Assembly (NCBI GenBank): GCA_964590205.1
Contig: CAZPVO010000003.1
Coordinates: forward strand, 682-64,681
DNA from: an uncultured Candidatus Saccharibacteria bacterium
GTDB taxonomy: Bacteria > Patescibacteriota > Saccharimonadia > Saccharimonadales > JAGQNJ01
DNA length: 64,000 bases
Direction of reading: 5' to 3'
Shown: positions 2,444 to 26,290 of the stretch, in pieces
Numbering within the stretch: the first letter of the stretch is position 1
Layout: each line of letters begins with the position of its first letter
Translations under genes and position numbers: made by a program
The notes under the pieces: model-generated
What the model saw: the letters and a program-made list of their open reading frames with translations, nothing else
What the model was told of the DNA's origin: nothing
Databases searched by the model: none

Positions 2444-3547
2444 GTGAGTGATCACAAAAACGTCATTGAACTAAATGGAAAGCTATATGATAGCGTAAGC
2501 GGTCATATGGTGGGCAACAAAGGCAACGCCGGGCCAACGGTAATTAAGCCTGGTACGGCCGTTGATGGATTTGTGAGAAGTGCTCCCGTAAAAGAGCCTA
2601 AGGCCCATCACACACAAACCGCACCAAAACCAATCCACGTGCAAGCTCCAACTCATCACAATAAAGCACATAAAGCAGCCAAGAGCATTGCTGCTCATAC
2701 GCAACATCACTCCAAAACCTTAGTTCGCCGGGGTCTTAAGAAACCGATCGCCGAACGTCCTGAAGAATCTGAAGTTTACACTAAAGGCACACCTCAACCA
2801 GAACGACTGGCTCGGGCCAAATCAACACCACAGAGTCCTCATATATCAAGGTTCGGTCTGCCGAGCGCAGCCACTTTTCAAGTAACCAAAAAAACAACTC
2901 ATATGCCTGTTAAACATTCGCCGAATCAATTAAAAGCCCGCGCCGCGATTCAGCAGGCATCGGTGCCAATTGCCAGCCAAAATCAAATACTAAAAGAGCA
3001 GATGGTTTCCAAAGCACTTAACGATGCGCGTGTTGATGAAGTGCCGCATAAAAAGGCAAAAAAGCACAACACCGCTCGTAGACTTGGTGTTAGTCCAAAA
3101 GTTGTTCATTTTGGCGCTGCAACTCTAGCAGCTGTTTTGCTATTCGGCTTTATTGCATATCAAAATGCACCGAATATTAGCATGAAGATTGCTGCATCTA
3201 AAGCTGGTATTAGCGCCGTTTTGCCATCATACAAACCAGCTGGTTTTGGCTTGAGCGGACCTATTGAATACGGCCCAGGTCAGATAACATTGAATTTCAA
3301 GTCTCACACCGACAATCGTAATTTCCATATTACTCAACGCGCTTCTGATTGGAATAGCGAAGCATTGCTCAGTAATTTTGTCTCAACTAACAGCAAATCT
3401 TACCAAACAGTACAGGACAAAGGCCGTACTATTTATATTTACGATGGCACGAATGCAACCTGGGTGAGCGGTGGCGTGTGGTATCAAATTGAAGGTAATT
3501 CTTCCTTAAGCTCTGAACAATTAGTCAAGCTCGCTGGCAGTATCTGA
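2444..3547 (+). CDS. membrane-anchored protein with DUF4367-like C-terminal domain
   Basis: GTG start. His/Lys/Pro-rich N-terminus, one TM helix, and a C-terminus (GRTIYIYDGTNATWVSGGVWYQIEGNSSLSSEQLVKLAGSI) that resembles the DUF4367 pattern. Confidence 0.4.
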   Translation: MSDHKNVIELNGKLYDSVSGHMVGNKGNAGPTVIKPGTAVDGFVRSAPVKEPKAHHTQTAPKPIHVQAPTHHNKAHKAAKSIAAHTQHHSKTLVRRGLKKPIAERPEESEVYTKGTPQPERLARAKSTPQSPHISRFGLPSAATFQVTKKTTHMPVKHSPNQLKARAAIQQASVPIASQNQILKEQMVSKALNDARVDEVPHKKAKKHNTARRLGVSPKVVHFGAATLAAVLLFGFIAYQNAPNISMKIAASKAGISAVLPSYKPAGFGLSGPIEYGPGQITLNFKSHTDNRNFHITQRASDWNSEALLSNFVSTNSKSYQTVQDKGRTIYIYDGTNATWVSGGVWYQIEGNSSLSSEQLVKLAGSI

Positions 3548-3566
3548 TGAGGCGGCTTCGCCTTTT

Positions 3567-3620
3567 GAGAGGGGATATCCCCTCTCAACGCGCAGAGCAA
3601 AAAGTGTGATTTTTGCTCTG
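3567..3620 (+). terminator. two tandem hairpins downstream of CDS 2444..3547
   Basis: GAGAGGGGATATCCCCTCTC palindrome at 3567-3586. An 11-bp stem CAGAGCAAAAA/TTTTTGCTCTG lies at 3593-3620. Confidence 0.5.
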
Positions 3621-3630
3621 GCTCTCTCCC

Positions 3631-3658
3631 CTGAAATTCTTCAATCATCTGGTACAAT
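3631..3658 (+). promoter_or_regulatory. extended -10 promoter of gltX (leaderless geometry)
   Basis: TGgTACAAT at 3650-3658, 6 nt before the ATG at 3665, with a weak -35 CTGAAA. Confidence 0.4.
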
Positions 3659-3664
3659 ACAGAG

Positions 3665-5095
3665 ATGAAAGTAAGAACTAGGTTTGCTGTTAGTCCAACT
3701 GGTTATATGCACGTTGGCGGTGTGCGTAATGCACTATTTGATTGGCTCGTTGCCAAACAGACTGACGGGCAGTTTATATTGCGCATCGAGGATACTGATC
3801 AAGCCAGGGAAGTAAAAGGTGCTCTCGAGCATATCATTGAAACACTACATATTCTTGGTATTACATGGGACGAAGGTCCGGATGTTGGCGGGCCAGCTAA
3901 AACTTACGTGCAAAGCCAGCGACTAGATATTTATAAAGAATGGGCTCAGAAGCTCGTTGATGCCGGCAAGGCTTACGCTGATCCATACACGTCCGAGCAA
4001 GTACAACAATTCCGAGAACAAGCTCAAAAAGATAAAAAGCCCTTTTTGTATCGCGATCATCGGCCAGAGAACCCTCCCAAATGGGACGGTACGCAACCAT
4101 TACGCCTCAAGTCAGAACCCAAAGCTCATAAATGGCACGACGAAGTTATGGGTGATTTGTCTGCTGGCGAGGAAGCTGTTGACGATTTTGTGCTCATAAA
4201 ATCTGATGGTTATCCAACGTATAATTTTTGCCACATTATTGATGATCATCTCATGGATGTAACTCATGTGATTCGATCACAAGAATTTTTGGCCAGTATG
4301 CCAAAGTATCTTAATCTTTATGAGTCACTCGATATTTCTAAACCAAAATTTGCCACTCTACCGTGGATTATGGCTGAAGGGGGCAAAAAGAAACTCAGTA
4401 AACGTGACGGCGCTAAAGATGTTTTAGACTACATCCGTGAAGGTTATTTGCCCGAAGCATTGGTTAGTTTTATCGCCACACTCGGCTGGAATGATGGTAC
4501 AGAACAAGAAGTTTTTACTGTTGATGAGCTCATTAAAAAATTCAGTTTGGAACGAGTGGGCAAAAGCGGCGCGCACTTTGACGAGCAACGCTTAACATGG
4601 GTCAACGGTCACTTTATTCGACAACTCAAACTCGATGAACTCTATACAAAAGTAAAAGACTTTTGGCCAGCAGAAGCCGAGGGTTCAGACGAAGATTATA
4701 AAAAACAGGTTTTGGCACTTGTACAAGAACGGCTCAAATATTTTACTGAGCTGCCCGAGCTCACCAAATTTTTCTTTGAAGAGCCCAGCCCTGACATAGA
4801 GCTAATTGACAATAGCAAGCAACTCAAAAAATTCTCGCATGATGAGTTGGCAAAACTGTTGCGCACAGCAATTGATAGTTTAGAAACCAGTAATTTTAGC
4901 ACCGAAGACCTTACCAAAAAGCTCAATGATTTATTAGAAACCACCGAGCAAAAGCCTGGCGTGCTGTTTAGCTTAATCCGCGTGGCAACAACATGGTCAC
5001 CAGCATCGCCAGCTCTTGCAGAAAGCCTACATGTACTCGGCAAAGACAAATCGCTGAACAGGCTCAAAGCCTCTCAACAATACATTGGTAAATAA
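3665..5095 (+). CDS. gltX: glutamyl-tRNA synthetase
   Basis: Class I motifs PTGYMHVGGVRNALF (HIGH-type) and KLSKRDG (KMSKS-type). Similar to GluRS over the full length. Confidence 0.93.
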   Translation: MKVRTRFAVSPTGYMHVGGVRNALFDWLVAKQTDGQFILRIEDTDQAREVKGALEHIIETLHILGITWDEGPDVGGPAKTYVQSQRLDIYKEWAQKLVDAGKAYADPYTSEQVQQFREQAQKDKKPFLYRDHRPENPPKWDGTQPLRLKSEPKAHKWHDEVMGDLSAGEEAVDDFVLIKSDGYPTYNFCHIIDDHLMDVTHVIRSQEFLASMPKYLNLYESLDISKPKFATLPWIMAEGGKKKLSKRDGAKDVLDYIREGYLPEALVSFIATLGWNDGTEQEVFTVDELIKKFSLERVGKSGAHFDEQRLTWVNGHFIRQLKLDELYTKVKDFWPAEAEGSDEDYKKQVLALVQERLKYFTELPELTKFFFEEPSPDIELIDNSKQLKKFSHDELAKLLRTAIDSLETSNFSTEDLTKKLNDLLETTEQKPGVLFSLIRVATTWSPASPALAESLHVLGKDKSLNRLKASQQYIGK

Positions 5096-6435: not shown

Positions 6436-7971
6436 TTGAATAATCTCAAGAAACTTCAGAACCAGATACAGCAGCAAGTCTTATTAGTTCTGGCTGGAGT
6501 TAATATTTTAGTCGTATTAGCTGTTCTAATACTTATTTATTTCTTGAAATTACACATATTGATCGTGGCAGCACTCGCGCTAATAGCCGTAGCAGCTTCA
6601 TCATTTTTAGCGGCGCGCTGGGCAGCTCGATTTAGCACAGAGCCAATCGAGAAACTTTCTCAGGCGATTGTCCACGTATTGCCGGAGCATCAGGGAAGTC
6701 CAGCACCAGATTTAGACCATCTTAAGGTTGGTCGCGAACTTGTAACGACTATGGCGTTGCAGGTTTATCAATTGGGTAGCTCCTCGCAAACAAAAAGTGC
6801 ACCTAAACCTACCCAAACTGATAACCGTAGTCAGAGCGTGCTTAATAATTTGCCGATGCCAGTAATTGTGCTAGATCAGAACCAAGTTGTAATTTACGCC
6901 AACACTTCAACGGCTGCCTGCTTGCAACTACCAATAAACGAAGTGATCGGCAAGGATATGTACTCATTATTTGATTTGGCGTTTCCAAATGACCAAACCT
7001 TTGACAGTTGGTTAACACAATGTCGTAAAGATAAGCTGACGGCCACCATGAACTGGGAACGCGTACGCCTGCAAACCGCTGGCCAAAAAGTTCGTCACCA
7101 GTTCGATATGGTCGCTTATTACAATAAGAACAACCCGAATAATGTGGAAACAATCATTGGGCTCTTTGATCAAACCGAAAAATATAAACAAGACGACAGT
7201 GGTGTTGGCTTCATTGCGCTGGCAGTGCATGAACTTCGCACGCCACTCACCATGCTGCGCGGCTACATTGAAGTACTTGAGGAAGAATTGCGAGGCAAAC
7301 TGGACCCCGAACTCAACGGTTATTTACAAAAAATGCAGGTAGCTTCTCAACAGTTGGCTAATTTTGTCACCAACATTTTAAATGTCGCACGTGTTGAAGA
7401 AAATCAGCTATTTCTACAACTAAAAGAAGAAAAATGGGATAGCTTGCTACGCGATACATTAAAAGAAATGAGTTTGCGTGCGCAGGTGCACCACAAGCAA
7501 ATCGTACTGCAAGTGCAGCCGGATTTGCCAAATGTAGCGGTTGATCCCATCACTATTACTGAAGTTATCATCAATCTCGTCGACAATGCCATTAAGTACA
7601 GCGGCAGTGGCAATAAAATCATCGTAAAAACTTATATGAATAACGAAGGTTTTGTTGAAACCACCGTGCAGGATTTTGGTGTTGGCATTCCAACCAATGC
7701 TCTCGGCAATCTGTTCGAAAAATTTTATCGCAGTTATCACAGCAAATCACACGTTGGTGGCACCGGCCTAGGCTTATATTTGAGTAAATCAATCGTAGGT
7801 GCGCACAATGGACAGATCTGGGTCAAGTCTAAAGAAGGCGAGGGCAGCACGTTTGGTTTCACGCTCGTACCTTATGCAAAACTTGCCGAAGACCTTAAAA
7901 AACCTGATAATAACGATGTCACCCGTATAGCGCACGGCTGGATTAAAAATCACTCATTCTATAGGAGATAA
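6436..7971 (+). CDS. sensor histidine kinase (TM + PAS-like + HisKA + HATPase)
   Basis: TTG start. H-box AVHELRTPLTMLRGY, N-box LVDNAIKYS and G2 box GGTGLGLYLSKSIV. Confidence 0.88.
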   Translation: MNNLKKLQNQIQQQVLLVLAGVNILVVLAVLILIYFLKLHILIVAALALIAVAASSFLAARWAARFSTEPIEKLSQAIVHVLPEHQGSPAPDLDHLKVGRELVTTMALQVYQLGSSSQTKSAPKPTQTDNRSQSVLNNLPMPVIVLDQNQVVIYANTSTAACLQLPINEVIGKDMYSLFDLAFPNDQTFDSWLTQCRKDKLTATMNWERVRLQTAGQKVRHQFDMVAYYNKNNPNNVETIIGLFDQTEKYKQDDSGVGFIALAVHELRTPLTMLRGYIEVLEEELRGKLDPELNGYLQKMQVASQQLANFVTNILNVARVEENQLFLQLKEEKWDSLLRDTLKEMSLRAQVHHKQIVLQVQPDLPNVAVDPITITEVIINLVDNAIKYSGSGNKIIVKTYMNNEGFVETTVQDFGVGIPTNALGNLFEKFYRSYHSKSHVGGTGLGLYLSKSIVGAHNGQIWVKSKEGEGSTFGFTLVPYAKLAEDLKKPDNNDVTRIAHGWIKNHSFYRR

Positions 7972-8887: not shown

Positions 8888-10174
8888 ATGAAACAACCAA
8901 TCTTCGCGTTAATAGACTGTAATAATTTTTTCGTCAGCTGCGTCCGCGCGTTCAGGCCTGATCTGGAAGGCAAGCCAGTCGTGGCATTATCGAGCAACGA
9001 CGGCTGTGTAGTCGCGCGCAGCAACGAGGCCAAAGCGCTCGGCATTCCAATGGGAGCACCAGTGTTCAAATGGAAAGAAATTTTCAAGCGACACAACGTT
9101 ATCCAATTTTCCGGCAATTTTGAACTGTACGCCGACATGTCCCGCCGCGTTACCGCCATGCTCAAATCAATCACGCCGCATATCGAGATTTACTCAGTCG
9201 ACGAATCGTTCTTAGATTTGTCAGAACTTGAAATTGAGGATTACACCGCTTGGGCCAAGCAGGTGAGAGCGATGGTTTTACAGTGGACAGGTTTGCCGGT
9301 TGCCATCGGTATTGCTGGCAGTAAAACACTGGCCAAATTAGCCACTGATCGGGCTAAAAAAGAATTCGAACTTGGTGGTGTGCTGGATTTATATTCACCA
9401 CACCCAGAAGACCGTGCACCGTACATGGAACGCACGCGACTAAAAGATATTTGGGGAGTTGGCTGGCGACTGGCGCCTAGACTCAAAGCCGAAGGTATTC
9501 ACAGTGCTATGGATATTGCCAACATGCGACCGCAGTTCGCCCAAAGTCTGATGGGCATTCACGGTCGGCAATTAGTTGCGGAGCTTAATGGTGAATGTTG
9601 TTTACCGCTCACCAAAGTTGGCAAGCCAGCACAGAGTATTGCTAACACCCGAACATTTGGCGAAGACACCAATCAATTTCATGTGCTCGAAGCTGCTATT
9701 GCATCGTTTGCATCTAAAACTACTCAGAAGTTGCGGGCTGGCCACCAGCTCACTACCAAGGCTGGCATTTTTATTGCCACCAACAAGCATAAACCGGGTT
9801 ACCGTATGCAAACTGAGACAGTTGATTTTTTGGCACCAACAGCCGACACCGGGAAGATCACCCAAGTTTTAACCGAGAAATTGCGTGATATGTTTAACTC
9901 CCATAGTTCCTACCACCGCGCTGGCGTGTGGCTCTACGATTTTATTCCCGAGCGGGCTTTTCAGATTGATCTGCTCGGCAATGCGCGGCCGGATATACAC
10001 GAGCAATCAACAGACCGAATGAGCGCCGTTGATAATCTCAACGAGCGCTATGGCAAGCACACAATATATTACGCAGCCGAGGATCTAGGCAATTCCTGGC
10101 AGCCACAGCGCAAACAGCAAATGCCACGCTTCACGACCCGTTGGGATGAACTCGCCCCCGTTACAATCAAGTGA
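8888..10174 (+). CDS. umuC: Y-family translesion DNA polymerase (UmuC-like)
   Basis: The N-terminus FALIDCNNFFVSCVRAFRPDLEGKPVVALSSNDGCVVARSNEAKALGI closely parallels UmuC. Confidence 0.88.
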   Translation: MKQPIFALIDCNNFFVSCVRAFRPDLEGKPVVALSSNDGCVVARSNEAKALGIPMGAPVFKWKEIFKRHNVIQFSGNFELYADMSRRVTAMLKSITPHIEIYSVDESFLDLSELEIEDYTAWAKQVRAMVLQWTGLPVAIGIAGSKTLAKLATDRAKKEFELGGVLDLYSPHPEDRAPYMERTRLKDIWGVGWRLAPRLKAEGIHSAMDIANMRPQFAQSLMGIHGRQLVAELNGECCLPLTKVGKPAQSIANTRTFGEDTNQFHVLEAAIASFASKTTQKLRAGHQLTTKAGIFIATNKHKPGYRMQTETVDFLAPTADTGKITQVLTEKLRDMFNSHSSYHRAGVWLYDFIPERAFQIDLLGNARPDIHEQSTDRMSAVDNLNERYGKHTIYYAAEDLGNSWQPQRKQQMPRFTTRWDELAPVTIK

Positions 10175-11990: not shown

Positions 11991-13319
11991 ATGAAAACAT
12001 TAATTATTGTTGGTGGATCTGTTATAGCTTTTATGGGGCTGTTCCTCATTTTATTTGCCGTCATTAGCCGCGAGCACAAAAAGCCCAAAAAAAAGCACGA
12101 CGCAGGTGACATTGATCTGTCCGACAAAAACCTCGAGTCCGACATCATCCTTAACGCCATAGAAGACGGTGTGATTTTAATTGACGCCCATAATAACATC
12201 CGCGTGTTTAATCCAGCAGCATCGCGAATTATTGGCTGGCCAGCCAAAGAAGCCGTTGGGCTCGATTTTAATTTGGTCGTCAAACTGATCGACGAGAAGG
12301 GCAATGCCTACCAACCCGAAGTTAACCCTCTCGTACAGGTGTTTACGCAAAAGACAACCATCCGTGATCACAGCGCTATGTTACTCACTCGCTCAAATAA
12401 AAGAACGGCCGTAAACCTCAGTGTTTCGCCGCTGTTTGACAAGCAGGGCAATGTAAACGGCTCTGTCACCATTTTTCGCGATGTAAGCAAAGAACGGGGC
12501 GAGGAACGTCAACGAGCTGAATTCATTAGCACAGCCAGCCACGAAATGCGCACGCCGGTCGCCGCTATCGAGGGTTATTTAGCGCTGGCCATGAATGAAA
12601 AAGTTACTACCATCGATACTAAAGCGCGTGATTATTTACAAAAAGCTCATCTATCCACACAACATCTCGGACAGCTGTTCCAGGACTTATTAACGTCGGC
12701 CAAAGCAGAAGATGGCCGGCTGTCGAGTCATCCCGTCGTAATCGAAATGGGACAATTCTTGGAAAAACTGGCGGATGATTTACGGTTTACCGCCCAAAAA
12801 AAGAACCTCAGTATGGAATTTGTCATGGGCACCAACAATCAAACCATCGATGCCAGCGGCAGCCAAAGTACCAAGATGGTCAAACCACTCTATTACGTGC
12901 ATGCCGATCCTGATCGACTGCGCGAAGTTATAACTAACTTATTCGACAACGCTGTTAAGTACACCGACACTGGCAAAATTTCGTTGGGTATGACCGGCAA
13001 TAACGAAGTTGTTCAGTTCTATGTTAAAGATACCGGACCTGGCATTCCTCCAGAGGATATTTCGCACCTATTTGAAAAGTTTTACCGTGTAGACAACTCT
13101 GCCACTCGAACCATTGGCGGCACGGGTTTGGGCTTGTTTATTTCTCGCAAAATTGTTGAGCTGTACGGGGGTCGCATTTGGGTCGAAAGCGATCTAGGAA
13201 AGGGCAGTACGTTTTTTGTGAATCTGCCACGTATTACAAATCAAAAGGCATCCGAGCTGAAAGCAACAGAGGCGCAGGCTTCGCCATTATCATCTGATAC
13301 ACCTGTTGCCAGTTCGTGA
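11991..13319 (+). CDS. PAS-domain sensor histidine kinase
   Basis: N-terminal TM helix, PAS-like region, H-box SHEMRTPVAAIEGY, N-box LFDNAVKYT and G2 box GGTGLGLFISRKIVELYGG. Confidence 0.88.
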   Translation: MKTLIIVGGSVIAFMGLFLILFAVISREHKKPKKKHDAGDIDLSDKNLESDIILNAIEDGVILIDAHNNIRVFNPAASRIIGWPAKEAVGLDFNLVVKLIDEKGNAYQPEVNPLVQVFTQKTTIRDHSAMLLTRSNKRTAVNLSVSPLFDKQGNVNGSVTIFRDVSKERGEERQRAEFISTASHEMRTPVAAIEGYLALAMNEKVTTIDTKARDYLQKAHLSTQHLGQLFQDLLTSAKAEDGRLSSHPVVIEMGQFLEKLADDLRFTAQKKNLSMEFVMGTNNQTIDASGSQSTKMVKPLYYVHADPDRLREVITNLFDNAVKYTDTGKISLGMTGNNEVVQFYVKDTGPGIPPEDISHLFEKFYRVDNSATRTIGGTGLGLFISRKIVELYGGRIWVESDLGKGSTFFVNLPRITNQKASELKATEAQASPLSSDTPVASS

Positions 13320-13368
13320 TACAATAATCCATAAGAGCATAAGCATTTAGATAAGAAAAGGAACACTG

Positions 13369-14604
13369 ATGGCAAAAGTAATGCTGGTTGAGGACGACAA
13401 TAATCTCCGTGAGATTTATGAAGCTCGTCTGGCCGCAGAAGGTTATGAAATTGTAGCAGCGCAGGACGGCGAGGAGGCGTTAGCTTTGGCCGTTAAGGAG
13501 CGTCCTGATCTTATTATTGCCGATATTATGATGCCGAAGGTCAGCGGTTTTGATATGCTCGACATTTTGCGCAGCACGCCAGAAACCAAACACACCAAGA
13601 TTATTATGATGACTGCACTCAGCCAGGCCGAAGATAAAGCTCGAGCCGAAAAACTTGGTGCTGATCGCTATTTGGTTAAATCACAAGTGACCCTAGAAGA
13701 CGTTGTGAAAGTCGCCAGTGAAATGCTGAATGATCAGAGTGGCGGAAGCTCAAACGGACCTGCCGATGATTCGCCAGTGACCGATCCAGTCAGCGATGCG
13801 CCAACTATTGGTTCAAGCAACGACTCAGGCGCCGCACCAGCAGACGATAAACCTGCTGATGAACCAGTCACACCACCGCCAGCTGACGATCCTGCTGCTG
13901 CTTCCACGGCAACGCAGCAAAGTGATACGACCGCCACTGAGGAAGCCGATGTGACAAAGCAAATTGACGACTTTATAAGCAAGAACCCAACACTGTCGAC
14001 TGCTGCCACTCCACCACCTGAAACTGCTCCTGCTGAGCCCGCAGCCGCTACCGACGAGCCAGGCTTCAAAGAAGAAACAATCAGTGGTGCACCGGCCGTT
14101 AACGACGCCTCAAAATCTAAAACAATTCCAGTTACTGTTCATAGCGATGAGCCTGAAAAAAGCGATGCCGACAAAACTATGGCGAATGCTGTTGATACGC
14201 TCGCAAATGCCGGAGGTCCAACTCAGCCACCTGAAAATGCCGAAAACACATTGCCAAACCCAGCCACCGATGACGACGGCAAACCTAAACCAGCCGAAAA
14301 AAAGGGTGGTGAACGTGTTATCCAACCACTTACGGATCCGACGCAGTCTGCCGGCCCAAGTCTTGATGAATTACTAGCCCGTGAGGAAAGCAACAATGGC
14401 ATTGCGCCACCGCCAGTTAATGCTGTAATCGCCCCAGGTGGTGCTGTTACGCATAACAACACGCCGATTGATCCAGCCGCTCCAGCACAACCAGCTTTTA
14501 CCGATAGCAGCGCTGCACCAGGTGTTGTACAGGCTCCAGTCGATCCTGGCATAAACACACCGCCAACCACTCCTCCAGCTAACGCTAACAACATTAGTCT
14601 CTAG
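13369..14604 (+). CDS. response regulator receiver with ~280-aa low-complexity P/A/T/D-rich tail
   Basis: A canonical receiver (MLVEDD, DLIIADIMMPKVSGFDML, YLVKS) covers about the first 120 aa. The remainder is compositionally biased with no recognisable output domain. Confidence 0.8.
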   Translation: MAKVMLVEDDNNLREIYEARLAAEGYEIVAAQDGEEALALAVKERPDLIIADIMMPKVSGFDMLDILRSTPETKHTKIIMMTALSQAEDKARAEKLGADRYLVKSQVTLEDVVKVASEMLNDQSGGSSNGPADDSPVTDPVSDAPTIGSSNDSGAAPADDKPADEPVTPPPADDPAAASTATQQSDTTATEEADVTKQIDDFISKNPTLSTAATPPPETAPAEPAAATDEPGFKEETISGAPAVNDASKSKTIPVTVHSDEPEKSDADKTMANAVDTLANAGGPTQPPENAENTLPNPATDDDGKPKPAEKKGGERVIQPLTDPTQSAGPSLDELLAREESNNGIAPPPVNAVIAPGGAVTHNNTPIDPAAPAQPAFTDSSAAPGVVQAPVDPGINTPPTTPPANANNISL

Positions 14605-14636: not shown

Positions 14637-15302
14637 ATGCGTTTAAACCAATTTATTGCCCATGCGACTGGCTTGTCACGTCGCAGCGCTGACAAAGCAA
14701 TTGAAGCGGGTAGTGTTGCCGTAAACGGACAACCTGCAAGTTTAGGTCAACAAGTGAGCGAAAAAGACGAAGTGACCTACAAAGGCCAACCCGTGAGTAT
14801 TGGCAAGACTGTGACGATTATGCTTAACAAACCGGTCGGCTATGTTTGCTCGCGTGACGGGCAGGGTAGCCAAACAGTTTATGATCTGTTGCCGGCCGAA
14901 TTTCAAAGCCTAAAACCGGTCGGGCGGCTCGACAAAGATTCTTCCGGGTTATTACTATTAACAAACGATGGCAAACTTGCGAACGAGCTCACACACCCGA
15001 GCTTTGCCAAAGAAAAAGTTTACGAGGTCGAGCTCAATAAAAATCTGTCCGAGACTGACCAAAAAGCTATCCAGCAGGGGGTTGAACTCGAAGATGGCAT
15101 CAGTAAACTAAAACTTACCGGCGCTGACAAACAGTGGACAGTCCGAATGAGTGAAGGACGAAACCGCCAAATCCGTCGCACGTTCGAAAAACTCGGTTAT
15201 AGAGTGGATAAACTCCACCGCACAAATTTCGGGGATTACTCGCTCTCCGGAGTATCTTCAGGTAACTTTACACAAGCAACGATTGTGTCAATTAAATCAT
15301 GA
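14637..15302 (+). CDS. pseudouridine synthase, RsuA/RluB family (S4 + PSU domains)
   Basis: S4-like N-terminus MRLNQFIAHATGLSRRSADKAI and catalytic GRLDKDSSGLLLLTNDG. Confidence 0.85.
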   Translation: MRLNQFIAHATGLSRRSADKAIEAGSVAVNGQPASLGQQVSEKDEVTYKGQPVSIGKTVTIMLNKPVGYVCSRDGQGSQTVYDLLPAEFQSLKPVGRLDKDSSGLLLLTNDGKLANELTHPSFAKEKVYEVELNKNLSETDQKAIQQGVELEDGISKLKLTGADKQWTVRMSEGRNRQIRRTFEKLGYRVDKLHRTNFGDYSLSGVSSGNFTQATIVSIKS

Positions 15303-16054
15303 GTTCTAGCCAAACGGGCTGCTTGTTCAGCTCGCTGTCTGTTCTCGCCGGTCACTCTATCAATTTCTGATTGCTCAGCTGAAAGAATAAGCTCGTGTAG
15401 TGCTTTTCGAGCACCAGCAATTCTACCATCTAACTCCTCTTGAGGGGTACGGCCTTGAAGTGCTTCTAACTCCTGTTTGGCGTCGGCAAGATCCCTTCGT
15501 ACATAACTACTGTCTTTACCGACTCTATTAGTAACTTTGATTTTGATTAAATCTTCCGGTCTATTTTTCGGCTGCCACTCATGAATTGCATTATCGACTA
15601 TCTTCATTCGAGCTAGCTCTTGCTGCAAGTGAAGTACTGTTCGTTCGAGCAAACTTACTTCGCGCTCGTAGTGTCTGGTTGCAAACTCGGTGCGATCTTC
15701 TGGCCCCATTGCATCAACCGCAGCAAGTCCATATTCAAGACTCTCGGCACTAACATTATGGTAAGTGAGTGACTTCCAGATAATTTGATCTTCATCTTGC
15801 TCAACACTAAGTTCAACAGTATGTGCATTCGCTCTTTCTGCAGTTGGGTTATACGCTAGTGTTCCTAGATGCTCAAGAATTAATTCGGCATCAACATCAA
15901 CAACGGAAGTAGAGTTGTGCATAACTTCAATTGCACCTGCCAAAACAATATCAGCAGGGGTAATCTCAGCACCGCGAGCATACGCCGTCAAGTATGGCGA
16001 GATCCAAACATCTTGCCGCTCAACTCGCTCAAAAGTTTCTGAAGTATCAGACAT
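15236..16054 (-). CDS. hypothetical acidic protein with coiled-coil C-terminal half
   Basis: Long ORF with protein-like composition and no recognisable motif. Its 3' end overlaps the pseudouridine synthase gene by 67 nt. Confidence 0.5.
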   Translation of the reverse strand: MSDTSETFERVERQDVWISPYLTAYARGAEITPADIVLAGAIEVMHNSTSVVDVDAELILEHLGTLAYNPTAERANAHTVELSVEQDEDQIIWKSLTYHNVSAESLEYGLAAVDAMGPEDRTEFATRHYEREVSLLERTVLHLQQELARMKIVDNAIHEWQPKNRPEDLIKIKVTNRVGKDSSYVRRDLADAKQELEALQGRTPQEELDGRIAGARKALHELILSAEQSEIDRVTGENRQRAEQAARLARTHDLIDTIVACVKLPEDTPESE

Positions 16055-16083: not shown

Positions 16084-16112
16084 TTGTCAATATCTTGTAC
16101 CTCTGTTATACT
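16084..16112 (+). promoter_or_regulatory. sigma70-type promoter of der (leaderless geometry)
   Basis: TTGTCA (16084-16089), 17-nt spacer, TATACT (16107-16112), then 7 nt to the ATG at 16120. Confidence 0.5.
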
Positions 16113-16119
16113 AGCTGTA

Positions 16120-17430
16120 ATGAAGAAGCTGCCAATTGTTGCAATTGTTGGACGAGCTAACGTCGGCAAGTCCAGCTTATTTAACTCCGTACTGCGGCGC
16201 CGTGAGGCTATTGTAGCTAATGAGCCGGGCACCACACGTGACAGCATTGCTGCCAAAGCTTCGTGGCAAAACCACGACTTTTGGCTGGTTGATACCGCTG
16301 GTATGAAAGACCCGGAAGACGATTTTGAATTTACGATTCAAGAGCAGATCACCCAAGCCACCGACAGCGCTGATATTATTTGGGTTGTCATCGAAGCCAA
16401 TGTGGCCATAACCGAGGAAGACCGCCGTGTCGCCAAGCTTGCACTCAAGAGTAAAAAGCCGGTTATTTTAGTTGTTAATAAAGCCGATAAAGCTCCCAAA
16501 GCAACTTCGGACGACTATCGCAATCTCGGTGTTAAAGACATTTTTATGACGACTGCCAGCCAAAACCGTGGTGTCGACGAACTGCTCGATAAGGTTGTAA
16601 CTGATATTCCAAAAGTTCAGATGCCTGAGGACGACAACCGCGTTCACATAGCAATTCTTGGCCGGCCAAATGTCGGTAAATCACATCTGTTTAATACGCT
16701 GGCTAAGAAGCAGCAGGCGATTGTGGCTGACCGCGCAGGTACAACACGCGACATCAACCGCACAATTATCAAATTCGAAGGTCAAGAAATTGAACTTATG
16801 GACACTGCCGGTATTCGCCGCAGTGGCAAAATAGAGCAGGGCGTTGAGAAGTTCAGCGTTATTCGCAGTTTGAGTGCCATTGAGCAGGCCGACGTTTGTT
16901 TGCTACTTATGGACGCCAATGAGCTTAATGTGCAGCTTGATCAAAAAATTGCCGGCATGATCAAAGAAGCAGGCAAGGGCTTGGTGCTAGTCGTTAGCAA
17001 ATGGGACAGTATTGATAAAGACGCTTTCACACGTGATCAGCTAGCCCCACAAATTCAACAAAACTTTATTTTCGTACCATGGGCACCGCTCATTTTTACG
17101 AGTTCTGTGACAGGGCAGAATGTGGCCAAACTATTTGAACTCACGCTCGAGATTATGAAACGCCGTGCACAGCGGATTTCCACACCAGAGCTCAATCGTT
17201 GGCTCAAAACCGTTATTGACGCACACCCGCCAGCTGGGCTCAAAAACTCCACACCAAAGCTGAATTACATCGCTCAGGAAAACGACAATCCAAACCCAGC
17301 TTTCAAAGTGTTTGGGTCGCACACCAAGCTGCTGCACTGGAGCTATAAACGCTTCATGGAACGCAAACTACGCGAAAAATATGACTTTGTAGGCACACCA
17401 ATCAAGTTCTGGTTCATCGAAAAACACTAG
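16120..17430 (+). CDS. der: ribosome-associated GTPase Der/EngA
   Basis: Two tandem GTPase domains (GRANVGKSSLFN...DTAG...NKAD and GRPNVGKSHLFN...DTAG...SKWD) plus a KH-like C-terminus. Start taken at MKKLPIVAIVG. Confidence 0.92.
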   Translation: MKKLPIVAIVGRANVGKSSLFNSVLRRREAIVANEPGTTRDSIAAKASWQNHDFWLVDTAGMKDPEDDFEFTIQEQITQATDSADIIWVVIEANVAITEEDRRVAKLALKSKKPVILVVNKADKAPKATSDDYRNLGVKDIFMTTASQNRGVDELLDKVVTDIPKVQMPEDDNRVHIAILGRPNVGKSHLFNTLAKKQQAIVADRAGTTRDINRTIIKFEGQEIELMDTAGIRRSGKIEQGVEKFSVIRSLSAIEQADVCLLLMDANELNVQLDQKIAGMIKEAGKGLVLVVSKWDSIDKDAFTRDQLAPQIQQNFIFVPWAPLIFTSSVTGQNVAKLFELTLEIMKRRAQRISTPELNRWLKTVIDAHPPAGLKNSTPKLNYIAQENDNPNPAFKVFGSHTKLLHWSYKRFMERKLREKYDFVGTPIKFWFIEKH

Positions 17431-17453
17431 TAATTTGCAATTCGCGCTGCGGG

Positions 17454-17828
17454 GTGTACAGTTTAGTTATGATTGCTCCATTGACAGAAGGTGAAAGCTA
17501 CCAAAGCTTTATAGAGCGACATTCTGGACAACTCGAAGAGGCTCGTAAAGATTTTGACCCTACGGATCCAATGGATCCAGAAGTTTTGAAGTTTGGCTAC
17601 TGTGCCGTGATGGGCGTAGACCCTCGACTGTTTATTGTTTACCCTGGTGCCGATCTATCTGCCGCCAAAGCCGCCTGCGACGCATGTGTCGTAACCGAAG
17701 AATGCCGTGAAAGGGCTGTTTCGCGTCCACCTGAAAAGATGCAAGATATGATGTGGGCCGGGAGTATGCCAGTTGCTATCCGACGAATTCGTCGATCAAG
17801 AGCCAGGGCTGCAAAACACGCCAGCTAG
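17454..17828 (+). CDS. WhiB-like (Wbl) Fe-S cluster transcription factor
   Basis: Cys pattern C-x28-C-x2-C-x5-C embedded in YCAVMGVDPRLFIV...AKAACDACVVTEECRERAV. It is followed by a WAG turn and the basic tail RRIRRSRARAAK. An ATG at 17469 is an alternative start. Confidence 0.75.
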   Translation: MYSLVMIAPLTEGESYQSFIERHSGQLEEARKDFDPTDPMDPEVLKFGYCAVMGVDPRLFIVYPGADLSAAKAACDACVVTEECRERAVSRPPEKMQDMMWAGSMPVAIRRIRRSRARAAKHAS

Positions 17829-17860
17829 CTTCTTGCATATAGTTTCGGTATTCTATTTGC

Positions 17861-18502
17861 ATGGGTTTGTTCGTAAAAAAGACCGAAACAGGTGCTAACG
17901 CAGCGCCACTCTATACACTTGGTTCGCAAAAAACTGTATTAATTGTTGGCCTTGGCAACATTGGCAAAGAGTTTGATGGGACCCGTCATAATATTGGTTT
18001 TTTCTCTGTTGACGCATTAGTGAAGGACCAAGGTTTTCCAGAGTGGATCGTAAAGCGCGACTTAAAATGTCACTTCACAGATCAGAACTTAGGGGACACG
18101 CGAGTTATACTCATCAAGCCAACAACTCTTATGAATAACAGCGGTCAAGCCGTCCAGGCAGTTCAGCACTTTTATAAAATCACCAACTCACAAACTCTAG
18201 TTGTTCACGATGAGCTCGATATAAACTTTGGCCAAATCCGCACACGTGTTGGCGGTAGCGACGCCGGCAACAACGGCATCAAATCCCTCATTCAGCACAT
18301 TGGTGAAGATTTCCGTCGGGTGAGGATCGGTATCAAAAACGATTTGCTACAGAAGCAAGACAGCGCCGATTTTGTGCTAGCCAAGTTTAATAAAGACGAA
18401 CAAGCAAAACTTCCCGACCTGAGCCGGGAAGTTGTAAGCATTTTAACCGAGTATGTGTTTGGCGGTGATCTCAACCACGAGACACGCTCGTTTCTGTCGT
18501 AA
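17861..18502 (+). CDS. pth: peptidyl-tRNA hydrolase
   Basis: LIVGLGNIGKEFDGTRHNIGF, VVHDELD and GGSDAGNNGIKS motifs. Confidence 0.9.
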   Translation: MGLFVKKTETGANAAPLYTLGSQKTVLIVGLGNIGKEFDGTRHNIGFFSVDALVKDQGFPEWIVKRDLKCHFTDQNLGDTRVILIKPTTLMNNSGQAVQAVQHFYKITNSQTLVVHDELDINFGQIRTRVGGSDAGNNGIKSLIQHIGEDFRRVRIGIKNDLLQKQDSADFVLAKFNKDEQAKLPDLSREVVSILTEYVFGGDLNHETRSFLS

Positions 18503-25246: not shown

Positions 25247-26290
25247 ATGGCTAACGAGCAGAAAACAGCGCAAACTTCGGTGGAGAAGTACGTTAATGAC
25301 ATTCTTGAAACCATCGACAAAGAACGTGAGCGCGAAATTGTATCTCGACGTTTTGGCTTGTTTGACCGTAAAGAGACTCTCGAGCAAATAGGGGAGTTGT
25401 TAGGTATTACTCGTGAACGTGTTCGTCAGCTGGAAAAAGCTGTTGTTTCTCGCTTAAAAGCACAGGCAGCTGAGGGCAAAGTTCCACATATCGCAGAAAT
25501 CGAAAAAGAATTTGTTGAGCGAGTAAGTACAATGGGGAAGTCAGGCCGTGTGAGCGACCTCTCGGCTAAGCTAACAAAAGACAATTCTCGTCTTGATCAA
25601 GCTCGTGTATCGTTCCTCGCACAACTATGCCCAAAGCTGGTTGTTGTTGATGAAAACGACTTTTATTACCTAAGCGTAGCGCTATCTGACAGTTTTAATG
25701 AAAAATCGCTCAAAGATGCTGTCGCTAAAATTATTGAAGCTATCAAGAAAATTGGTGAGCCAACAACTATTGATAAAGTTGCCGAAGCTATCAAGCATCC
25801 AAACGCTAAAGAAGTTGCAGCGCTTGCCAGCACTAGCAAGCAACTCGCAAATCTGAACAACCGCTGGGGACTTATTAAGTGGCCGATGGTCAATCCTAAG
25901 AACATTCGCGACAAAATCTATGTTATTTTGTTTGAGAACGGCAAACATATGCACTTCGGTGAAATCGCTGATGCAATCAAGAAATCAGAGTTCAAGCGCA
26001 AAGACGTAACAACTCAGGCTATCCATAACGAACTTATTAAAGATTCACGCTTCGTGCTGGTAGGGCGGGGAATTTACGCGCTCAAAGAATGGGGTTATAA
26101 GAAGGGAACTGTCGCTGATGTGATCAGCGATGTGCTTCGAAAAGCCGGTGAACCATTACACCGCGACGAAATCGTCAAGCGTGTATTAAAAGATCGCTAC
26201 GTCAAGGAAACGACAATTCTTCTCAACTTACAGGGCAAGAAGCAATTCAAACGTGTTGCTAAAGCAACCTACACACTAGCAGAAAGCTAA
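25247..26290 (+). CDS. sigma-70 region 4-like HTH protein with HARE-HTH-like repeats
   Basis: REIVSRRFGLFDRKETLEQIGELLGITRERVRQLEKAVVSRLK is a region-4 type HTH, and no region 2 is seen. C-terminal repeats resemble HARE-HTH (MHFGEIADAIKK...FVLVGRGIYALKEWGY; GTVADVISDVLRKAGEPLHRDEIVKRVL...FKRVAKATYTL). Confidence 0.6.
   Translation: MANEQKTAQTSVEKYVNDILETIDKEREREIVSRRFGLFDRKETLEQIGELLGITRERVRQLEKAVVSRLKAQAAEGKVPHIAEIEKEFVERVSTMGKSGRVSDLSAKLTKDNSRLDQARVSFLAQLCPKLVVVDENDFYYLSVALSDSFNEKSLKDAVAKIIEAIKKIGEPTTIDKVAEAIKHPNAKEVAALASTSKQLANLNNRWGLIKWPMVNPKNIRDKIYVILFENGKHMHFGEIADAIKKSEFKRKDVTTQAIHNELIKDSRFVLVGRGIYALKEWGYKKGTVADVISDVLRKAGEPLHRDEIVKRVLKDRYVKETTILLNLQGKKQFKRVAKATYTLAES

Follow-up and report, generated by a model that had tools for sequence, protein, structure and literature searches.

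The genome sampled by the window (i.e., the whole stretch of 64,000 nucleotides that was analysed) belongs, as judged from its genes, to a Saccharibacterium (TM7), and it carries between der and pth a gene coding for a divergent but intact WhiB-like (Wbl) protein. The best explanation for this gene, to which a probability of about 0.6 is assigned, is that it was acquired horizontally and became domesticated, its product acting as a redox- or NO-responsive [4Fe-4S] regulator on the Saccharibacterium's own sigma region 4 and RNA polymerase. Wbl proteins were called exclusive to Actinobacteria and actinophages in a family-wide study of 2026 (PMC13013590), and whiB has been used as a marker by which metagenomic phages are assigned to actinobacterial hosts (bioRxiv 10.1101/2023.05.30.542503). 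Such a taxonomic restriction describes the family and is no structural property of it; the window Wbl falls outside the restriction but is not thereby excluded from the family. A full-text literature search returned no report of a Wbl encoded by Saccharibacteria, Patescibacteria or the candidate phyla radiation, and the mentions of WhiB in that literature concern the actinobacterial host or actinophages.

The gene, its locus and its genome

The gene and its immediate surroundings comprise the following features:

15236 to 16054, minus strand: 272-aa ORF between rsuA and der, acidic, with no Pfam or PHROG match
16084 to 17430, plus strand: der (engA), coding for a double GTPase with a KH-like domain; conserved Saccharibacterial backbone gene directly upstream of the Wbl gene
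17431 to 17860, plus strand: der-pth junction, 430 bp in the window
17454 to 17828, plus strand: mechanically called ORF of the same Wbl, GTG start, 124 aa
17469 to 17828, plus strand: Wbl (WhiB-like) gene, 119 aa from the ATG at 17469, the start in public gene calls (P0001)
17861 to 18502, plus strand: pth (peptidyl-tRNA hydrolase), backbone gene, 32 bp downstream of the Wbl stop

Because a GGGG(T)G stretch is found about 12 nt upstream of the ATG at 17469, this start is the more plausible one, and the Wbl more likely begins there than at the GTG at 17454. Residue numbers given below nevertheless refer to the 124-aa version. All motifs quoted in the earlier note were found in the ORF: the first cysteine is C50, within GYCAVMGVDPRLFIV, and the C75-x2-C78-x5-C84 cluster sits in AACDACVVTEECRERAV, which results in an overall spacing of Cys-x(24)-Cys-x2-Cys-x5-Cys. 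The tryptophan of the turn is W101, in MMWAGS, and the basic C-terminal tail reads RRIRRSRARAAK. All four cysteines (C50, C75, C78 and C84) align with the ligand cysteines of WhiB and WhiB1, and ligation of a cluster is predicted here as well. In an alignment of 69 sequences the Trp and the second Gly of MMWAGS occupy (nearly) invariant columns, and in comparison to G[VI]WGG an Ala stands in place of the first Gly, which is also the case in several relatives.

Upstream, 23–38 bp separate der from the Wbl start, depending on the start chosen, and 32 bp separate the Wbl stop from pth. Nothing resembling a promoter or a terminator separates these three genes, and together with the short spacers this suggests that the Wbl gene is probably co-transcribed with two housekeeping genes linked to translation. 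Neither flanking repeats nor other insertion scars were found around the Wbl gene, and a prophage context was ruled out, the unannotated neighbours having no PHROG matches. No secretion genes adjoin the Wbl gene, and no Fe-S assembly genes were found within the window.

In most relatives pth directly follows der. Across Saccharibacteria, the two genes are between 12 bp and about 3.1 kb apart, and the small ORFs found in the gap are unrelated to one another; because both the size of the gap and its contents vary in this way, the der-pth junction qualifies as a hypervariable insertion hotspot. Some of the inserts in the loci L002 to L170 are secreted or membrane-like, others have no detectable homology. 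On the other side of der, the 272-aa ORF is missing from about 160 Saccharibacterial loci and is thus a second lineage-specific gene flanking der; it overlaps the 3′ end of rsuA by 66 bp, and its GC3 is low (0.33).

With respect to the identity of the genome, the earlier note had stated that the window does not look actinobacterial but CPR-like, had considered a Saccharibacteria-type epibiont as one possibility, and had proposed to assign the contig with marker genes. That the organism is a Saccharibacterium is borne out by Der, for which 228 confirmed relatives were found among the GTDB species genomes; the best 80 of these 228 come nearly all from Candidatus Saccharibacteria/Saccharimonadales metagenome-assembled genomes (MAGs). 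The closest one (L002) is 89% identical and resides on a closed 840-kb chromosome. The backbone of the window is syntenic with both L002 and a second lineage, L032, and comprises genes for a histidine kinase and a response regulator, rsuA, der, pth, dprA, topA and a gene coding for a Sigma70_r4/HARE-HTH protein. In line with this assignment, the GC content of the window is about 44%, and its dcw cluster is minimal (mraW-ftsI-mraY-ftsW-murG).

That the contig might be mis-binned, chimeric or truly actinobacterial is scarcely credible. The one observation in its favour is the overall GC content of the Wbl gene (0.506), which lies 2.3 standard deviations above that of the window's genes. However, this value is raised because the protein is rich in Ala, Arg and Pro, and the GC3 of the gene, which the earlier note had suggested comparing with its surroundings, is native (0.408, as against a mean of 0.410 for the window's genes). 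Moreover, the flanking genes der and pth, only 23–38 bp away, are themselves Saccharibacterial, and the 5,501 bp that span der, the Wbl gene and pth recur at 100% identity in an independent Logan assembly. As two assemblies agree over this segment, the join is not an assembly chimera.

Several other genes in the window were recorded in passing. Two PAS-HisKA-HATPase histidine kinases are encoded at 6436–7971 and 11991–14604, and the partner of the latter is a 411-aa response regulator without any Pfam domain in its output region. At 8888–10174 on the plus strand there is the gene for a UmuC-like Y-family polymerase (IMS, IMS_C and DUF4113 domains); no other gene in the window reaches its GC3 of 0.52, and next to it comes a 289-aa ORF without Pfam match. 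In the region 137–2302 a sortase gene adjoins a gene on the opposite strand that codes for a 494-aa PEGA-domain protein.

Family membership and predicted fold

The earlier note had described the protein as a bona fide Wbl with every hallmark of the family, and this description has stood up in sequence as well as in fold comparisons. Pfam PF02467 (Whib) matches with 28.8 bits (E = 1.8e-6), above its gathering cutoff of 23.6, the envelope comprising residues 52–94 only. In PHROG, five WhiB families match (top match 3.4e-6), and a search of NCBIfam gave no match and hence no equivalog. By phmmer against the PDB, Streptomyces WhiB as well as WhiB1 and WhiB7 of Mycobacterium tuberculosis (Mtb) were found, in alignments that span the DP motif, the three C-terminal cysteines, the Trp turn and the basic helix.

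An AlphaFold2 model built from an alignment of 69 homologues has a mean pLDDT of 83.5, with block means of 86–96 from residue 51 on, and displays the four-helix Wbl fold. When this model was compared with the PDB by Foldseek, all 14 matches were Wbl proteins, the highest target-normalised TM score being 0.79 (WhiB, 8dy9_H); for WhiB1 as bound to sigma-A4 (6ono_A) the rmsd is 2.4 Å across 72 columns. In a fold search of BFVD, the top matches were all phage WhiBs. The ORF is thereby confirmed as a genuine, if divergent, Wbl and not a chance match.

Like the actinobacterial Wbls (Mtb WhiB1 to WhiB7, Streptomyces WhiB and WhiD; PF02467), the window Wbl is a small monomeric protein, and it has in common with them the Cys pattern, the DPxLF helix end, the Trp turn and the Arg-rich C-terminal helix; its model superposes on WhiB1, WhiB, WhiB3, WhiB6 and WhiB7. 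In contrast to these proteins it is encoded by a Saccharibacterium, its identity with the solved Wbls is only 22–30%, it has two extra residues between the first cysteine and the DP motif (C-x5-DP instead of the typical C-x3-DP), and its turn reads MMWAGS instead of G[VI]WGG. It also differs from the WhiB7 subclass in that its tail has no AT-hook (RGRP), there being, by inspection, no GRP in RRIRRSRARAAKHAS. The N-terminal extension of about 45 residues, which had been considered unusual, turns out to be unremarkable: among 100 related Wbls the median position of the first cysteine is 30.5, and in 29% of them it is found at position 45 or later. Although divergent, the window Wbl has an ordinary architecture for its family and does not point to a new mechanism.

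Distribution and origin

The junction between der and pth was surveyed for further Wbls with an HMM made from 118 Wbl hits, about 4 kb on either side of der being covered. The two genes are neighbours in 80 of 80 GTDB loci and likewise in 71 loci from metagenomes, and amongst these roughly 150 junctions a Wbl was found in just one other lineage, L032 (CAYRSA010000001.1; protein P0037/P0149), the Der of which is 75% identical to the window Der. In the closest relative, L002, der and pth are 13 bp apart and the junction is empty, without a Wbl. At the der-pth site the Wbl is therefore rare in Saccharibacteria and not a trait of the lineage; that Wbl homologues might prove common throughout it, which the earlier note had named as fatal to its claim of novelty, does not hold there.

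The P0037-type gene is known from about 18 contigs, five of which, each from a different sample, show it in the order der-Wbl-pth. Synonymous and nonsynonymous differences among its alleles are few and too sparse for an estimate of selection. P0037/P0149 resembles the window Wbl in its position between der and pth, in the subfamily signature described below and in an acidic N-terminal extension that aligns in part; it differs from the window Wbl by the turn (TMWGGH) and by a longer, non-basic C-terminal end, and the genome of L032 has a GC content of 0.51 as compared to about 44% in the window. The alignment of the window Wbl with P0037 covers 90 aa at 33% identity and reaches into the N-terminal region. 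Yet in bootstrapped distances of the core domain the two Saccharibacterial Wbls are not nearest neighbours, ranking 97 and 76 of 115, and a sister relationship between them is unsupported by these distances.

When 1.84 billion cluster representatives were searched exhaustively by phmmer, 118 hits were obtained at E <= 1e-3, the best non-self match having an E value of 1e-6 and 47% identity over about 70 aa. Among about 15 billion collected proteins, the window Wbl stands as a singleton. When it or a two-sequence profile was used in word-indexed protein searches, nothing but the queries came back; the same profile gave no match in a metagenome scan, and none of 50,697 phage genomes was matched by tblastn at E <= 0.01.

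Within the phmmer hits, a C-x5-[DN]P motif together with a proline at position W+5 was found in 7 of the 107 that could be parsed, both Saccharibacterial Wbls included. The two characters are associated with each other (p = 3e-6, Fisher's exact test), also when the two Saccharibacterial proteins are left out (p = 1e-4). A profile of this subfamily recovers more members (P0123–P0127 and P0131), and the resulting C-x5-DP/W-x-G-x-x-P group comprises P0006, P0020, P0123–P0127 and P0131. The window Wbl shares with this minor, phage-dominated group the two-residue insertion after the first cysteine, the proline after the Trp turn and the small size, but is only 33–39% identical to its members and is chromosomally encoded between der and pth in a genome of 44% GC.

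On the contigs inspected, the subfamily members are found at contig GC contents of 0.58–0.70. Three of these contigs are phage-like and one is clearly actinophage-like: Prim-Pol primases and series of small ORFs occur on both L174 and L175, the latter also has a terminase, and its primase is 48% identical to those of Arthrobacter phages, whereas L083 (GC 0.58) is phage-like with two Whib genes (3434–3673 and 4316–4591). For P0006, the GC content of 0.63 is the only information offered by its contig of 925 bp. These contigs fit the published observation that most minor Wbl subfamilies, namely 19 of 24 small ones, are dominated by phages, which carry wbl genes between hosts (PMC13013590).

As the inspected subfamily contigs are GC-rich and three of them are phage- or mobile-element-like, a phage-type Wbl is a better guess for the donor than a chromosomal gene of the host. 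Most likely, then, the donor belonged to the phage- or mobile-element-type Wbl pool of Actinobacteria, an assignment that depends on one indel and one residue because all putative donors are only weakly similar (at most 47% over about 70 aa). The agreement of GC3 with the mean of the window's genes means that the transfer was not recent, and the window Wbl is a rare and old acquisition. The earlier note had offered host-derived horizontal transfer or a regulatory module shared with the host as explanations. A horizontal origin from the actinobacterial world remains the best reading, but the transfer is not a recent one and a phage-type donor fits better than the host itself; for a shared module no support was obtained.

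Wbl genes were also encountered on other contigs of low GC content. P0011 (L172/L173, 1681–1980) is encoded on a contig of GC 0.47, between genes for an ABC-2 permease and a DivIC/FtsB-like protein, and may be another non-actinobacterial or low-GC-actinobacterial chromosomal Wbl. P0038 (L179, 7001–7288; JACOYT010000009.1, GCA_016181725.1) has a chromosomal context of GC 0.44 between fmt and a VIT1 gene, with purS, purC, thyA and dprA nearby on its NCBI MAG contig. P0076 is a further Wbl on a low-GC contig, and in L178 (921–1608, GC 0.45) a tandem pair of Whib genes comes after a Band_7 gene.

Possible mode of action and significance

Binding of Wbl proteins to sigma factors involves a patch of aromatic residues around the cluster pocket, the positions AP1 to AP4 of which correspond to W3, F17, F18 and W60 in WhiB1, and requires a His516-Pro517 pair in the sigma factor (PMC6954389, PMC13013590). 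An aromatic patch has been defined by at least two aromatic residues at AP1 to AP4, with at least one of them at AP2 or AP3 (PMC13013590). According to the alignment with WhiB1, the window Wbl has F59 at AP2 and W101 at AP4 and hence such a patch. Unlike in actinobacterial Wbls, AP3 (I60) and the canonical AP1 (V44) are aliphatic, the latter with F47 and Y49 nearby.

As to the partner, the C-terminus of Escherichia coli sigma70 (...KLRHPSRSEVLRSFLDD) also holds the His-Pro pair (KLRHPSRS); Actinobacteria are therefore not alone in having the sigma determinant, and a Wbl could find its partner in a Saccharibacterial sigma factor. A gene for a primary sigma factor (sigma70) was found neither by motif scans of the window and of all fetched loci nor by extending the window ends. 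A 347-aa protein encoded at 25247–26290 (plus strand) consists of a Sigma-70 region 4 (residues 26–71) followed by HARE-HTH, without sigma regions 2 or 3, an architecture also found downstream of topA in L085. Because it has no His-Pro pair after the region 4 helix, this protein is not an obvious target of the Wbl.

The favoured scenario would then run as follows. A TM7 lineage would have acquired the Wbl gene horizontally, the gene landing in the variable junction between der and pth and residing there for long enough that its synonymous-site composition came to match that of the genome. By homology to WhiB1 to WhiB7, the four cysteines would hold a [4Fe-4S] cluster, and the cluster pocket with F59 and W101 might dock onto the His-Pro pair that closes region 4 of the organism's own primary sigma factor. 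The Arg-rich C-terminal helix would contact the DNA beside the –35 element, and O2, NO or redox stress could switch the regulator by loss or nitrosylation of the cluster, as homology to the characterised Wbls suggests.

Some of the same observations could be read otherwise. It appears unlikely that the gene is functionless cargo, left over from phage or mobile DNA and tolerated in a permissive hotspot. The der-pth junction does gather unrelated small ORFs in many lineages, the gene is missing in the closest relative L002, its product is without a close counterpart among some 15 billion proteins, and the differences between the P0037 alleles are too few to demonstrate selection; however, the ORF is intact and retains the four cysteines, the DPxLF motif, the Trp turn and the basic tail, the predicted fold is a confident one, the fully ameliorated GC3 implies a long residence without decay, the gene is tightly spaced within an apparent der-pth operon, and its P0037 counterpart has been kept in the same slot across five samples. 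With respect to the history of the gene rather than its function, vertical descent, i.e., a fast-evolving Wbl that the common ancestor of the two lineages (window and L032) already had between der and pth and that most descendants lost, has to be considered, since both lineages use the same slot at a Der identity of just 75%, their Wbls align over 90 aa into the N-terminal region (33% identity), and both share the rare C-x5-DP indel and the W+5 proline. It is decidedly unlikely all the same, as it would require losses in nearly all of the roughly 150 junctions, that of the closest relative included, and is at odds with the core-domain distances; moreover, as the site is one of recurrent insertion, it is just as parsimonious to assume that related phage-type Wbls were captured independently.

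Finally, the protein might be directed at another cell, being transferred from the epibiont to its host in order to target host sigma-A and to reprogram host transcription in the manner of actinophage Wbls. Phage Wbls indeed bind region 4 of host sigma-A via the same aromatic patch (PMC13013590), and cultured Saccharibacteria are obligate epibionts of Actinobacteria (PMC12369343); in addition, the subfamily is otherwise found on phage-like contigs, and the N-terminal 44 residues have no assigned function. This is nonetheless very improbable: by inspection, the N-terminus (MIAPLTEGESYQSF...) has no hydrophobic stretch resembling a signal peptide, the adjacent genes are not secretion genes, and the gene is placed between housekeeping genes. 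A domesticated regulator acting on the Saccharibacterium's own transcription is retained as the preferred reading.

Held at long odds is the broader proposal that Saccharibacteria parasitising Actinobacteria may use a captured phage-type Wbl either against host sigma-A or to synchronise their own transcription with redox or NO signals derived from the host. If true, the protein would act as a regulatory effector across phyla and become the first Wbl with a demonstrated role outside an actinobacterial cell.

For the field, the effect of the finding is modest, given that the gene is rare at its site, that its product has an ordinary Wbl architecture and that its function is deduced by homology. 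Still, a chromosomal and ameliorated Wbl in two Saccharibacterial lineages indicates that the family can persist in another phylum, and with the window Wbl there is tangible evidence that genes have passed from the actinobacterial or actinophage pool into Saccharibacteria. It also offers a natural test of whether the mechanism by which Wbls act on sigma factors depends on actinobacterial sigma-A, or whether any primary sigma factor with a His-Pro pair would suffice.
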